The position numbers were made by a program, and so were the translations under genes. Of a DNA stretch of 64,000 nucleotides, positions 42,161-46,898 are shown piece by piece; positions within the stretch are counted from its first letter, which is position 1; every line of letters starts with the position of its first letter. Below the pieces are notes generated by a model. That model was given only the letters and a program-made list of their open reading frames with translations. It was not told the origin of the DNA and searched no databases. This stretch comes from an uncultured Bacillales bacterium (GTDB taxonomy: Bacteria > Bacillota_I > Bacilli_A > RF39 > UBA660), in NCBI GenBank assembly GCA_946539445.1, contig CAMNHK010000002.1:41744-105743 (forward strand), written 5' to 3'.

Positions 42161-44776
42161 TTATTTTGCTTCGTACCAATTATTTCCTTCTTCTATATCT
42201 ACTTTTAAAGGAACTCGTAATTGGAATGTATTTTCCATAATATTACGAACAATTTCCTTTACCTCAGCTAATTCTTCTTTTAATACATTGAAGACTAATT
42301 CATCGTGAACTTGAATTAACATTTTACTTTTTAATTGCCGCTTTTCAAATTCCTGATAAATTTCAACCATAGCTTTTTTAAGAATATCCGCAGCCGTTCC
42401 TTGAATAGGAGTATTAAGAGCCATTCTTTCTCCACTACTGCGAATAATATAATTCTTACTTTTTAATTCTTCGATAACACGTTTCCGATTCATCAAAGTT
42501 CGAACATACCCGTTTTGATAAGCCAAAGCTTTTTCCTTTTCCATATAATCTTGAATACCAGGATATGTATCCAAATAATTATCAATAAAATTTTTTGCTG
42601 TAACAATATCAATTCCTAAATCTTCGGATAATCCAAAACTACTAATTCCATATAATATTCCAAAGTTTACTGCCTTTGCATTACGACGCATATCCTTAGT
42701 AACTTGATCCTCTGGAACATGGAAAATGTCCGCAGCCGTTTTAGCATGAATATCTTTATTATCCTTAAACGCTTGAATCAAGTTTTCTTCATTCGACATA
42801 TGAGCAAAAATACGCAATTCTACTTGAGAATAATCACTAGACATTAAAACACTATCTTCATCTGGAATAAAAGCTTTTCGAATTAATCTAGAATAATCCG
42901 AACGTGCTGGAATATTTTGCAAATTAGGACTAATACTAGACAAACGTCCTGTACGTGTTAATGTTTGGGTAAAAATAGTATGGATACGTCCATCTTCTCG
43001 AATCTCTGCTTTCAAGCCAACCGCATAATTAGTATACAATTTTGCTAAAGTTCTATATTCTAATATTTTTTCTACGATAGGATGTTCTCCAATAATTTTA
43101 TCAAGGATTTCTTTACTAGTAGAATACTTTTGATCTTTGACCTTTTTAGGATAATGAATTCCAAGATCTTCAAATAATACTTTTGCTAATTGTGAAGGAG
43201 ACATAATATTAAACTCCTGATTAGCATCTTGATAGATACTCTTCTCTAATGTATCCATCTCCTTCTTCAATTCCTCTTCCACTTCCGTTAAATAATCACG
43301 ATCTACTTTGATACCTGTAATCTCCATATCCGCCAAAACCGTTGCAAGTGGCATTTCAATCGAATGGAACAATTCCTCTTCTTCATTTTCTTTTAATTCA
43401 TTTAAAAGTCTTTCTCTGGTTTCGTATATAAATTTTGCCTTCTGGCAACAGATTTGTTTTAACTCATCCAAAGGAATTTCCTTCGGTCTTTTATCAGTTC
43501 CATATAATTCCTCATAATCTGGTATATCATATTGAAAACTTCTAGCAACAAAACTAATATCGTCTTTCACAATATAATCCAATAGATAAGCGGCAATCAT
43601 CGTATCGAATGTTACATTTTGAATCGATAATCCATAAGGATTCAATACAACCAAACACTTCTTTAAATCATACGTATATTTTTCATTTGTAAAACAAAAC
43701 AAATCTTTATGTTGAATGATATCATCTAAAGATAAGAAATATCCTTTTTCCCCATCATAAATTCCTAATCCTAAGATATCACTTTTACTATAGATAGATC
43801 CTCTCGTTTCTAAATAAAAGGAGAAATTTTTATTTTTAAAATGAGAGATATCCTCTATAATAAGTTCTTTTAATTTTTCTTCCTTCTTCTCTTCTTTTTC
43901 CATAGTAACGTTTGTAAAATCTAATTTTTTAAGTAATGAATAAAATTCTAATTCTTCTAATATTCTTTTAAACTCTTCTGGTTTATAACCTTTATAAGCA
44001 CAATCTTCAAAAGTAAAATCAATGGGAACTTCTCGATAAATAGTAGCAAGATCATAACTCATATAAGCATTTTCTCGGTCATTTTCTAGTTTTTCTCTTG
44101 TCTTTGGAGAAATACAATCCAAATGTTCATAAACACCATCCAAACTTCCATATTTTACTAACAAATCAATCGCCGTTTTTTCTCCAATTCCCTTAACTCC
44201 AGGAATATGATCACTAGGATCTCCCATCAATGCTTTTAAATCAATCATACGAATTGGATCGACTTTATACGTATTACGAAATTCTTCTGTATTCATCCAA
44301 ATATGACCAGTTTGTTTTAATAATTTTACATCTACTTCGTCACTAATTAATTGCAATAAATCTTTATCACTACTTACGATAGTAGCAACAAACTCATCTT
44401 CCTCATCCACTTTTTTGGCTAACGTACCAATAATATCATCAGCTTCATAATTATCAATTTCATAGTGTTTAATACCCATACTATCCAATACTTCTTTGGC
44501 TTTTGGAAATTGAACACGAAGCTCATCTGGCATAGCCATTCTTCCCGCTTTATAACTTTCATATTTATCATGTCTAAAGGTTTTTCCTTTATCAAATGCT
44601 ACTACAATATAATTAGGATTCTCTTCCTTAATAATCTTATTCATCATATTAATAAATCCATACAACGCATTCGTAGGAAAACCTTTAGAATTTTTCATGA
44701 TAACGCCTTGATAAGCAGTTGCATAAAAACTACGAAATAATAAATTATTACCATCGACTAATATAATCTTTTTCAT
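42161..44776 (-). CDS. polA: DNA polymerase I
   Basis: 5'-nuclease domain (ILVDGNNLLFRSFYA), then polymerase motifs (DYSQVELRIFAH, RRNAKAVNFGILYG, QVHDELV). The ATG at 44776 follows AGGTGAT; the track start at 44785 is GTG. Confidence 0.97.
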   Translation of the reverse strand: MKKIILVDGNNLLFRSFYATAYQGVIMKNSKGFPTNALYGFINMMNKIIKEENPNYIVVAFDKGKTFRHDKYESYKAGRMAMPDELRVQFPKAKEVLDSMGIKHYEIDNYEADDIIGTLAKKVDEEDEFVATIVSSDKDLLQLISDEVDVKLLKQTGHIWMNTEEFRNTYKVDPIRMIDLKALMGDPSDHIPGVKGIGEKTAIDLLVKYGSLDGVYEHLDCISPKTREKLENDRENAYMSYDLATIYREVPIDFTFEDCAYKGYKPEEFKRILEELEFYSLLKKLDFTNVTMEKEEKKEEKLKELIIEDISHFKNKNFSFYLETRGSIYSKSDILGLGIYDGEKGYFLSLDDIIQHKDLFCFTNEKYTYDLKKCLVVLNPYGLSIQNVTFDTMIAAYLLDYIVKDDISFVARSFQYDIPDYEELYGTDKRPKEIPLDELKQICCQKAKFIYETRERLLNELKENEEEELFHSIEMPLATVLADMEITGIKVDRDYLTEVEEELKKEMDTLEKSIYQDANQEFNIMSPSQLAKVLFEDLGIHYPKKVKDQKYSTSKEILDKIIGEHPIVEKILEYRTLAKLYTNYAVGLKAEIREDGRIHTIFTQTLTRTGRLSSISPNLQNIPARSDYSRLIRKAFIPDEDSVLMSSDYSQVELRIFAHMSNEENLIQAFKDNKDIHAKTAADIFHVPEDQVTKDMRRNAKAVNFGILYGISSFGLSEDLGIDIVTAKNFIDNYLDTYPGIQDYMEKEKALAYQNGYVRTLMNRKRVIEELKSKNYIIRSSGERMALNTPIQGTAADILKKAMVEIYQEFEKRQLKSKMLIQVHDELVFNVLKEELAEVKEIVRNIMENTFQLRVPLKVDIEEGNNWYEAK

Positions 44777-44813
44777 TTTTATCACCTGCTTCTAGTATAA
44801 CACAAATCAAATA

Positions 44814-44963
44814 TTATTCACCAGTATTTACAGTAACCAATGTTTTCTCAGTTTGTTCCGCTTCTTCTAAACGTTCGATTCGATAACTAGCAAAAAGCAA
44901 ATAAACCAAAATCATAAGATAGATTACCACAATAATCATCCCATTCTTTACCGTTTCTTTCAT
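44814..44963 (-). CDS. Unannotated 49-aa single-pass membrane peptide, divergent from lexA (candidate SOS-induced effector)
   Basis: Below the ORF-track cutoff. ATG at 44961-44963 lies 7 nt after GAAAGGAGAG. Translation: MKETVKNGMIIVVIYLMILVYLLFASYRIERLEEAEQTEKTLVTVNTGE. The promoter contains a LexA box. Confidence 0.6.
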   Translation of the reverse strand: MKETVKNGMIIVVIYLMILVYLLFASYRIERLEEAEQTEKTLVTVNTGE

Positions 44964-44992
44964 ATAAATCTCTCCTTTCATCTTATAGATTT

Positions 44993-45021
44993 AGTATATA
45001 TCGAATATCTGTTCGTGTCAA
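44993..45021 (-). promoter_or_regulatory. Promoter of the 49-aa gene with embedded LexA operator
   Basis: Minus strand: TTGACA (45016-45021), 17-nt spacer CGAACAGATATTCGATA, then TATACT (44993-44998). The spacer carries the operator. Confidence 0.65.
45002..45015. promoter_or_regulatory. LexA (Cheo) box
   Basis: CGAATATCTGTTCG differs from the Bacillota consensus CGAAC-N4-GTTCG at one position. It lies between divergent lexA and the 49-aa gene. Confidence 0.75.
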
Positions 45022-45030
45022 TTAAAATTA

Positions 45031-45069
45031 AAACATTTGTTTGACATTTTACAGCAACCATGGTAAACT
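45031..45069 (+). promoter_or_regulatory. lexA promoter with a degenerate second LexA box over the -35
   Basis: TTGACA (45041-45046), a 17-nt spacer, then TGgTAAACT (-10 at 45064-45069). AAACATTTGTTT (45031-45042) is a 2-mismatch GAAC-N4-GTTC overlapping the -35. Confidence 0.6.
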
Positions 45070-45090
45070 GAAAACATAAGGAGGGATTCT

Positions 45091-45708
45091 ATGGAAAAAT
45101 TAACTGGAAGACAAGCCTTTATTTTAGAAGTTTTAAAGAAATTAATTGCCGAAAATGGATACCCACCTACGGTTCGAGAAATTGGTGAAAAAGCTCACCT
45201 ATCTTCTCCTGCAACCATCCATTTTCATTTGAAAAAACTAGAAGAAAAAGGATATATAAAAAAGGGAGACAATAAAAACAGAACCATTGAAATACTAGTT
45301 CCAAATGAATATTTAGAGCAAAACGAAAACGTGGTAGATGTTCCACTACTAGGAAAAGTAACAGCTGGTACCCCTATTGAAGCAATAGAGACTCCAGATG
45401 AATACTTCAGTCTTCCTACCAATCTGATTACTACCAAAAACGAAGTATTTACATTAAGAGTTAGTGGAGAGTCTATGATTAACGTAGGAATATATGATGG
45501 GGACATATTAATTGTAGAAAGACAAAACACCGCAAGAAATGGAGAAACCGTAGTAGCTATGAACAGCAATAATGAAGCAACGGTTAAAACTTTCTACAAA
45601 GAAAATGGATACTTCCGTTTGCAACCAGAAAATGATACCATGGATCCAATTATTCTAAAAGAAGTAACCATTCTTGGAAAAGTAATTGGTCTATACCGAA
45701 AGTTATAA
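45091..45708 (+). CDS. lexA: SOS repressor LexA
   Basis: 205 aa. Winged-helix N-terminus (LTGRQAFILEVLKKLIAENGYPPTVREIG) and an S24 peptidase C-terminus with V-S-G-E-S-M and V-K-T-F. Confidence 0.97.
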   Translation: MEKLTGRQAFILEVLKKLIAENGYPPTVREIGEKAHLSSPATIHFHLKKLEEKGYIKKGDNKNRTIEILVPNEYLEQNENVVDVPLLGKVTAGTPIEAIETPDEYFSLPTNLITTKNEVFTLRVSGESMINVGIYDGDILIVERQNTARNGETVVAMNSNNEATVKTFYKENGYFRLQPENDTMDPIILKEVTILGKVIGLYRKL

Positions 45709-45737
45709 AAAAAAGACTAGAAACTAGTCTTTTTTTG
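45707..45737. terminator. Bidirectional terminator shared by lexA and the 393-aa gene
   Basis: AAGACTAG-AAA-CTAGTCTT hairpin flanked by an A-run and a T-run. It overlaps the stop of the convergent 393-aa ORF. Confidence 0.75.
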
Positions 45738-46898
45738 TGTCTCATAATCTTTTAATAATTCTGCTTTACCTTTTAAATGAAATTCCATGTTCTCACCTTG
45801 AACAAATGATTCACGAACACAATCCATATTCCTAGAATGTCTCATCAATTCTAAAAAAGTATAAATAAGACGTTCACTCTTATGTTCACTAATAATATCC
45901 TGTTTTTCAACAAAACGGGAAACCATTCCTTTGGTATGAATATAATCTAAAACCTTATCACTTCTGTCTCCTGATTCATATAAGAAATCAAGTTCTTTTT
46001 GATCCTCCTCACTATATCCAGAAAAACTATCTGCAATACTAGAAGATAATTGTTCATGATAAGGATAATTAAAGATTTGCAAAGTGGGAACAACAATATC
46101 CTGAATTTGTTGATCGTACAAATAATCTAAAAACAAACTAATTCCAATAATAAAATCTGAAGAAACATACTTATTTCGAAGAAACTTTCTTAGTGATTGA
46201 AGACTCTCTTTTATTTCTGGATCTTTCATAGGATGAAGGGACTGTATTCCATAAATATAACAAGTTGGTCTTTCCTTTTCCTTAACAAGAGCAAAATGAA
46301 TAGCAGGAAAGTCATAGTCCTTAGGAGAATCAAAAATATCTTCACAATTTTTTCGAATCGAAAAAACAATATTTTGATTGGTTTCAAACCAATCGTCATT
46401 TTCATGAATCCGATAGGCCAAAACCTCTTGATTAGAAAGTCTCTTTATTTCTAGATAATTCGGAAAAATAGAATCATTTTTCAAAAACACGATTTGTTTG
46501 CGCAAAAAATTTTCCACATTTAAAATATCTTCTACTCCCATACGTAACCAAATACTACGAATAAAATGATCCGCATCTTGCAGCTTTCGATTTTTTCTCT
46601 TTGAATAAATAGTAATCATTTCTTCTAATAAAGAAAAAAACTCTTTTGAATTAGGAACACAAATAAAAATAGAATCTTCTCCTCGCTCATACTCTTCTCG
46701 AATACTCTTTAAATAATCAAGAGATTTTCTTCCTTTCATCCATAAATCTCCCTTTAAAGTTTTTAATTGTTCTTCCATTTCATTTATTGTTTCCCTATCA
46801 AAAACAAACTTAATATAGGGAGTAAAAAATTCCCAACTCAAGAAATCCGCAATGGTTTTTACAAGAAAAGTCATTTCCATATTCATCCTACCATTCAC
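45717..46898 (-). CDS. Cytoplasmic protein of unknown function (393 aa)
   Basis: Long ORF 28 nt downstream of tcdA on the same strand. No motif recognised. Confidence 0.75.
   Translation of the reverse strand: MNGRMNMEMTFLVKTIADFLSWEFFTPYIKFVFDRETINEMEEQLKTLKGDLWMKGRKSLDYLKSIREEYERGEDSIFICVPNSKEFFSLLEEMITIYSKRKNRKLQDADHFIRSIWLRMGVEDILNVENFLRKQIVFLKNDSIFPNYLEIKRLSNQEVLAYRIHENDDWFETNQNIVFSIRKNCEDIFDSPKDYDFPAIHFALVKEKERPTCYIYGIQSLHPMKDPEIKESLQSLRKFLRNKYVSSDFIIGISLFLDYLYDQQIQDIVVPTLQIFNYPYHEQLSSSIADSFSGYSEEDQKELDFLYESGDRSDKVLDYIHTKGMVSRFVEKQDIISEHKSERLIYTFLELMRHSRNMDCVRESFVQGENMEFHLKGKAELLKDYETQKKTSF

Follow-up and report, generated by a model that had tools for sequence, protein, structure and literature searches.

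A predicted LexA-repressed 49-residue membrane peptide encoded divergently from lexA in uncultured Bacilli, and its candidacy as an SOS division inhibitor

SOS-induced membrane proteins that inhibit division are known from a handful of cultured bacteria, and their fast evolution defeats homology searches; genes of 49 codons also fall under the usual annotation cut-offs. A stretch of 64,000 nucleotides from an uncultured Bacillales bacterium (the window) carries a short open reading frame (ORF) divergent from lexA, which raises the question of whether this ORF is a gene of the SOS response and, if it is, what its product does. The original prediction described a 49-codon minus-strand ORF with a strong ribosome-binding site (RBS), a TTGACA-N17-TATACT promoter and a LexA operator within the promoter spacer, and all of these elements are present where it had placed them (Table 1). 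On the minus strand they follow one another as TTGACA (the -35, 45021-45016), CGAACAGATATTCG (45015-45002), ATA, TATACT (the -10, 44998-44993), about 13 nt, the Shine-Dalgarno sequence GAAAGGAGAG, 6 nt and ATG, with 17 nt between -35 and -10, and the promoter is the best promoter-like site within 44300-45800. The leader of about 25 nt has a folding energy of 0 kcal/mol, so that the Shine-Dalgarno sequence is exposed and unstructured. The translation of the ORF is MKETVKNGMIIVVIYLMILVYLLFASYRIERLEEAEQTEKTLVTVNTGE. An in-frame ATG at 44981 would extend the product to 55 aa, but this codon falls within the RBS and has no conserved counterpart in relatives, and the 49-aa start is therefore the correct one.

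The divergent neighbor is lexA, as had been claimed; the gene is complete, and both Pfam domains are found in it. Its product has the A-G cleavage site in VTAGTP and the Ser/Lys dyad, with the serine in SGESM and the lysine in TVKTF. Past the end of lexA, a hairpin (AAAAAAAAGACTAGAAACTAGTCTTTTTTT, window 45709-45745) lies between this gene and a converging 393-aa gene (45717-46898, minus strand) that has no Pfam match and whose annotated end the hairpin overlaps; the hairpin looks like a bidirectional terminator.

Table 1. Features of the peptide-lexA intergenic region and its flanks, in window coordinates
Feature	Position	Strand	Remarks
polA (DNA polymerase I)	42161-44776	-	starts 37 nt past the peptide stop
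Extended -10 TGtTATACT of polA's own promoter	44794-44802	-	between peptide stop and polA
Single-pass membrane peptide (predicted) CDS, 49 aa	44814-44963	-	ATG 44963-44961, TAA 44816-44814
Shine-Dalgarno GAAAGGAGAG	44970-44979	-	6 nt 5' of the peptide ATG
Peptide-gene promoter TTGACA-N17-TATACT, sigma-A type	44993-45021	-	11 of 12 consensus positions
Predicted strong LexA operator CGAACAGATATTCG	45002-45015		first 14 nt of the peptide-promoter spacer
Weaker LexA-type box AAAACATTTGTTTG	45030-45043		overlaps the lexA -35
lexA promoter TTGACA-N17-TAAACT, TG-extended	45041-45069	+	
lexA, 205 aa	45091-45708	+	LexA_DNA_bind 2e-22, Peptidase_S24 7e-35

The lexA loci that we compared came from 40 relatives and, with LexA serving as the anchor, from 80 species representatives in a public genome collection. 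Within the genus (the genome itself and 24 relatives), 20 of 25 genomes have an ORF of 38-56 codons at the equivalent place, and an RBS of the GAAAGGAG type is conserved before the ORF in relatives. The peptide frame is open in all 20 of the genus genomes that carry the ORF, and the remaining five frames contain 1-13 stops each; an open frame of 50 codons is uncommon at the composition of this assembly (31% G+C). Across the same 20 genomes, codon pairs differ at position 2 in 25% of cases and at positions 1 and 3 in 47% and 49%, respectively, with a median dN/dS of about 0.48 at saturated dS. A profile search of 5.8 billion proteins returned 202 homologs (E <= 0.01) of about 48-89 aa, none of which has a Pfam domain and which are either unnamed or labeled 'hypothetical protein [Bacilli bacterium]'. 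When 1.84 billion cluster representatives were searched exhaustively with a profile, 124 clusters at 50% identity were recovered, in which sizes range from 38 to 84 aa except for one weak match of 690 aa, with no fusions to other domains. In scans of the peptides against Pfam, NCBIfam and PHROG, all matches stayed below threshold and concerned membrane segments, OAD_gamma for example, that are unrelated. The ORF is indeed unannotated in the track of the window, as had been stated, but the description does not extend to the family, since several homologs are entered as hypothetical proteins in NCBI metagenome-assembled genomes. The hosts are uncultured gut and rumen Bacilli whose named relatives, Candidatus Onthousia, Scybalousia and Faecenecus, are placed by NCBI in 'Bacilli incertae sedis'. 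Conservation of the small ORF beside lexA, a check proposed with the original prediction, extends to frame, residues and operator across dozens of species. On this comparative record, the peptide gene is real, and its family is undescribed and lineage restricted.

Whole-genome profile searches found exactly one copy of the peptide, beside lexA, in each carrying genome, and no copy anywhere in the genomes of five loci (L011, L016, L019, L023 and L024). The strong LexA box is absent from these five loci too, and polA lies directly divergent from lexA; it looks as though a subclade of the genus lost the gene together with its operator. We searched the peptide-less genomes for a replacement small gene with a LexA box and saw no obvious one, which suggests that the function of the peptide is dispensable. 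The only extra box in these genomes (G003:C216:7850) lies inside a coding sequence and was rejected as a sign of replacement. Five further loci (L041, L049, L056, L063 and L066) likewise have polA directly divergent from lexA, with neither the peptide nor the strong box. At L013 (genome G020; the same sequence as P0185 of the public protein collection), the peptide is cut to 38 aa, with the tail after the conserved S-D motif gone, and may be a decaying copy. A weak family member of a different setting, P0226 (52 aa; L113:205-363, on the 47.6-kb ENA contig NODE_799), retains Y15, F18, Y21, S26, R28 and E30. Its promoter is of the consensus type but lacks a LexA box, and it is the first in a series of eight small acidic genes; one member of this series (111 aa in our reading, DUF8033) matches PHROGs without assigned function. 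P0226 may be a phage-borne or plasmid-borne copy.

The operator CGAACAGATATTCG is the sole match to CGAAC-N4-GTTCG with at most one mismatch in the 64-kb window, and the assembly (1.37 Mb, 77% complete) holds six such matches. Boxes with at most two mismatches are not enriched across the window (6 found against 10 expected). Despite this, the box is more than a chance occurrence, because it is kept at the identical promoter-spacer position in 73 related loci of our lexA-locus collection. Its consensus over these loci is CGAACAaTTGT[TA][CT]G, and the design that recurs in them consists of TTGACA, the 14-nt box, about 3 nt and TAxxxT. The operator is thus conserved both in sequence and in promoter register, and we infer that a repressor bound there would exclude RNA polymerase. 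The second, weaker box at the lexA -35 is likely to be the autoregulatory operator of lexA. The sequence AAACATTTGTTTGACA is kept across the lexA loci of the genus, including those without the peptide, and variants related to the weak box (for example, AAACAAATGTTTGA and GAACATTTGTTTGA) are found in most of the more distant loci. We are highly confident that the ORF is a real gene for a membrane peptide and that, as its operator predicts, LexA represses it.

The predicted SOS regulon of this genome provides a context for the peptide. recA is preceded by AAAACATTTGTTCG (C12:19494-19507), a near-identical version of the weaker box that overlaps the lexA -35. A Y-family polymerase operon (C21:7555-9885), encoding a 496-aa polymerase that appears UmuC/ImpB-like from its N-terminal motifs as well as proteins of 139 aa and 113 aa, is preceded by CGAACTTATGTTCT; this box stands just 5' of a TGtTATACT -10 (C21:9872) and is the only other promoter-located box with at most one mismatch in the assembly. 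At uvrA, no LexA box was seen. The other four boxes with at most one mismatch were set aside: they lie in a gyrA-like gene, in a dnaX-like gene, in another coding region and in a non-coding stretch of a putative RNA gene, and relatives have them too, simply as conserved sequence. Two additional candidates, AGAACTATCGTTCT (C5:21079) and AGAACTATAGTTCT (C7:26389), were rejected as stems of intrinsic terminators followed by T-runs. As found in the 77%-complete assembly, the SOS regulon is small, comprising lexA, recA, one translesion operon and the peptide, and the best operator among its members is that of the peptide. An SOS regulon can evidently shrink far in a 1.4-Mb genome and yet keep the peptide, and this retention suggests that the peptide matters to the SOS response.

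AlphaFold2, run with 115 sequences, predicts a single helix spanning residues 3-48, with pLDDT values of 87-97 over residues 1-30 and of about 60 in the tail. The hydrophobic stretch covers G8-A25. Because the mean net charge over the family is +2.8 for the N-terminal segment and -1.1 for the tail, the positive-inside rule predicts one transmembrane (TM) helix with the N-terminus in the cytoplasm and the tail outside the cell, which agrees with the single TM helix and acidic tail originally described, the tail being acidic or polar. Y15, Y21 and R28 are invariant, and conservation is 90% or higher at G8, I11, I14, F18, S26, E30 and L32. Over residues 8-34, conservation has an alpha-helical periodicity that peaks at 100 degrees per residue, and only 51 of 20,000 shuffles score as high. 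The conserved helical face is made up of I11, I14/Y15, F18, Y21/L22, A/V25, V/I29 and L32, a pattern that suggests packing against a partner helix. The strongest conservation, S-[DN]-R-[VI]-E-[KR]-L-[DE], comes immediately past the membrane segment, and the tail ends in a semi-conserved alternating V-x-V-x-L-K-x. A cleaved signal peptide was considered and rejected on sequence inspection, as F-[AV]-S before the conserved S-D-R misfits the small -3/-1 rule.

Position, predicted control through a LexA box, predicted topology and conservation pattern together match the functional class of the lexA-linked SOS division inhibitors. Arguing by analogy with that class, we take as the best reading, at about even odds, that the peptide is an SOS division inhibitor that acts on the septal synthase and represents a new sequence family of the class. 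Against this reading stand the loss of the gene from a subclade with no visible replacement, the weak homolog P0226 in its setting without a LexA box, and the lack of detectable similarity to any characterized inhibitor or to any Pfam, NCBIfam or PHROG family.

The other neighbor of the peptide gene bears on the alternatives to this reading. The original prediction did not include a link to polA, an arrangement that is conserved in at least 72 loci: polA follows the peptide gene on the same strand, and both diverge from lexA, in at least 72 of 110 lexA-anchored loci. In most loci, 29-70 nt separate the peptide from polA; six loci have a gap of about 160 nt and one a gap of about 1.1 kb, and the Pfam domains of DNA polymerase I were found on the polA ortholog. 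Neither a pattern search nor folding revealed a terminator between the two genes, and the interval has a weak AU-rich fold (z = -1.6). Because there is no terminator, the two genes share a strand and the gap is 37 nt, the promoter of the peptide probably serves a peptide-polA transcript. The SOS promoter thus probably also feeds polA, adding damage-inducible transcription onto a constitutive promoter; a TATACTA element upstream of polA is kept in genomes with and without the peptide. P0233 (E = 4e-4), a distant family member whose retrieval was not anchored on lexA, is likewise flanked by lexA and polA. Four loci (L012, L018, L020 and L021) were considered as cases of the peptide without polA and then rejected, as tblastn places polA about 160 nt onward, past an inserted segment. 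These four loci, as well as L031 and L042, owe their gap of about 160 nt to an insert of about 120 nt in which a hairpin (CCAGATATTTAATATCTGG and variants) is conserved. The insert might be either a small repeat element or a one-strand terminator.

In more distant relatives (LexA no more than about 72% identical), polA is located elsewhere, and a different single-TM ORF of 37-57 aa is divergent from lexA behind TTGACA-CGAAC..GTTCG-TAT.AT. Because such analogous peptides stand beside lexA where polA is elsewhere, the link between peptide and lexA appears older than the link between peptide and polA. One locus from another family of the class (L027, genome G037; LexA 58% identical) has an unrelated 57-aa single-TM ORF (MSFKKISEESIVCSMF...) divergent from lexA, with CGAACATTTGTTTG upstream of it. 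Loci L098-L108 contain further single-TM examples of 42-51 aa, in which the position is kept and the sequence replaced.

A first alternative is that the peptide is an SOS membrane peptide with another role, either in modulating the envelope or transport or in acting together with DNA polymerase I. Function is not readable from the sequence of the peptide, and its pairing with polA in at least 72 loci, across a 29-70-nt gap without a terminator, would suit a partner of the polymerase. However, polA has a conserved extended -10 of its own and stands alone where the peptide has been lost, and the analogous peptides of distant relatives lie beside lexA without polA. We know of no precedent for a membrane partner of DNA polymerase I, and we consider another role of this kind unlikely.

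A second alternative, and the chief rival of the division-inhibitor reading, is an SOS toxin of the TisB or DinQ kind, which would oligomerize in the membrane, lower the proton motive force and bring about dormancy under severe damage. These type I toxins of Escherichia coli resemble the peptide in being small and single-TM and in having LexA-controlled promoters, and the conserved helical stripe described above could equally serve self-association. The weak homolog P0226 heads a phage-like block of small genes, which would also suit a toxin. The E. coli SOS regulon includes such a peptide, DinQ, which requires transcript processing and antisense RNA control (PMC3567139). TisB and DinQ loci have antisense or divergent small RNA antitoxins and translationally inert primary transcripts, and neither feature was found here. 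No plus-strand promoter-like site other than that of lexA lies over or beside the ORF, which is a weak test for an antitoxin RNA, and an Rfam search of 44300-45800 returned only noise. The structured 5' leader that hides the RBS in type I systems is also absent, the leader of the peptide being short, with its strong Shine-Dalgarno sequence in the open (a fold of 0 kcal/mol). Unlike typical patchy type I loci, moreover, the gene occurs as a single copy and keeps strict synteny with lexA in many species, and half of the peptide is polar, partly conserved and predicted to be extracellular. A toxin is, in our judgment, quite improbable. The last alternative, that the task of the promoter is damage-inducible polA and that the small ORF is incidental or leader-type, would fit the conserved arrangement without a terminator before polA but is very hard to reconcile with the amino-acid-level conservation of the ORF (Y15, Y21 and R28 invariant, seven more residues at 90% or above and a constrained codon position 2), with its conserved strong RBS and with the existence of family members and analogs that have no downstream polA.

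If the peptide is an SOS division inhibitor, it might work as follows. In undamaged cells, LexA would occupy the spacer operator between -35 and -10 and keep RNA polymerase off. On DNA damage, RecA-stimulated self-cleavage of LexA would free the peptide promoter, and the short unstructured leader with its strong Shine-Dalgarno sequence would allow immediate translation of the peptide; as no terminator intervenes, the transcript would probably continue into polA. The peptide would insert so that the basic N-terminus stays in the cytoplasm and the acidic or polar tail lies outside, and the conserved helical face and the S-x-R-[VI]-E-x-L motif would dock on a late component of the divisome. By pure analogy, the most likely target would be a SEDS polymerase of the FtsW type or the PBP that partners it. 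Docking would stall septal wall synthesis until repair is done, after which an extracytoplasmic protease would remove the peptide. Of these steps, damage induction is inferred from the anatomy and conservation of the promoter, and division arrest, target and turnover by analogy with the known inhibitors. The gene content of the genome is permissive for such a course: SEDS proteins are encoded by three genes, and there is a single C-terminal protease of the S41 type (G000:C10:28007-28489), the type that degrades SosA and YneA.

A more specific version of the division-inhibitor reading combines several of these elements, namely a 49-aa inhibitor that lacks a peptidoglycan-binding domain and sets its helical face on an FtsW-type polymerase, a two-gene SOS operon with polA and copies borrowed by phages. 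We offer this combination tentatively and with low confidence. Were it to hold, inhibition would come from the S-x-R-[VI]-E-x-L segment, which would lie at the outer surface of the membrane, a single operator would switch on both division arrest and gap-filling capacity, and diverged copies would have been taken over by phage-like elements as a means of delaying host division. The peptide would then be among the smallest Gram-positive effectors of a DNA-damage checkpoint and near the smallest size workable for such an inhibitor. If it binds a septal peptidoglycan synthase, its membrane-proximal motif would constitute a natural minimal inhibitor of a SEDS-bPBP pair. The locus in any case yields a well-delimited family in a large group of uncultured gut and rumen Bacilli; it numbers more than 200 sequences, three of its residues are invariant, and its operator is conserved.

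The known SOS division inhibitors provide the closest comparisons. YneA, ChiZ, DivS and SosA are encoded beside lexA, share little sequence and have one membrane span and an extracellular C-terminus, which bears out the premise of the original prediction that lexA-linked single-TM proteins of this class have little mutual similarity (PMC6851548). YneA (Bacillus subtilis and Listeria) and ChiZ (Rv2719c of Mycobacterium tuberculosis) are lexA-linked, SOS-induced and single-pass, and the peptide shares the linkage and, by prediction, the topology. The TM helix of YneA contacts TM7 of FtsW to reach the divisome, as reported in a 2026 study (PMC13396833), and this binding would fit the conserved helical face of the peptide. 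YneA blocks septal synthesis only with its LysM domain, however, and the TM helix alone binds without blocking (PMC13396833). Pfam finds no LysM domain in the peptide, whose 49 aa leave no room for one, so that it departs from YneA and ChiZ in this respect. The genome likewise has no YneA-like small LysM protein, LysM occurring there only in open frames of 244-509 aa. If the peptide inhibits division, either its membrane-proximal motif does the job of LysM or the mechanism differs.

SosA of Staphylococcus aureus resembles the peptide in more respects. Both are encoded divergently from lexA and are under LexA control, which for the peptide is predicted from the operator, and both have a single N-terminal TM helix, a C-terminus predicted to be extracellular and no LysM domain. 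Conservation in SosA is strongest just past the TM helix and weaker at the extreme C-terminus (PMC6851548), and the peptide has the same profile. The two differ in length (49 aa in the peptide and 77 aa in SosA), in the extracellular part of the peptide, which comprises only about 23 residues, and in the polA gene that follows the peptide on the same strand. The peptide also has no Pfam or NCBIfam match, and its likeness to SosA is one of descriptions and not of sequence alignment.

SidA of Caulobacter crescentus is reported to be an SOS-induced single-TM protein of 29 aa that binds FtsW and blocks division, and it resembles the peptide in being very small, in having a single TM helix and in lacking a peptidoglycan-binding domain (PMC4211646). 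It differs in its host, a Gram-negative alphaproteobacterium, and its sequence is unrelated to that of the peptide. To our knowledge, sidA is not located next to lexA. The original prediction that the peptide is the local analog of the lexA-linked inhibitors draws support from its position, the operator in its promoter, its predicted topology and its conservation, whereas the different contact that had been proposed for so short a protein is not required, as SidA binds FtsW with 29 aa and YneA docks through its TM helix alone. Small size is therefore no obstacle to division inhibition.
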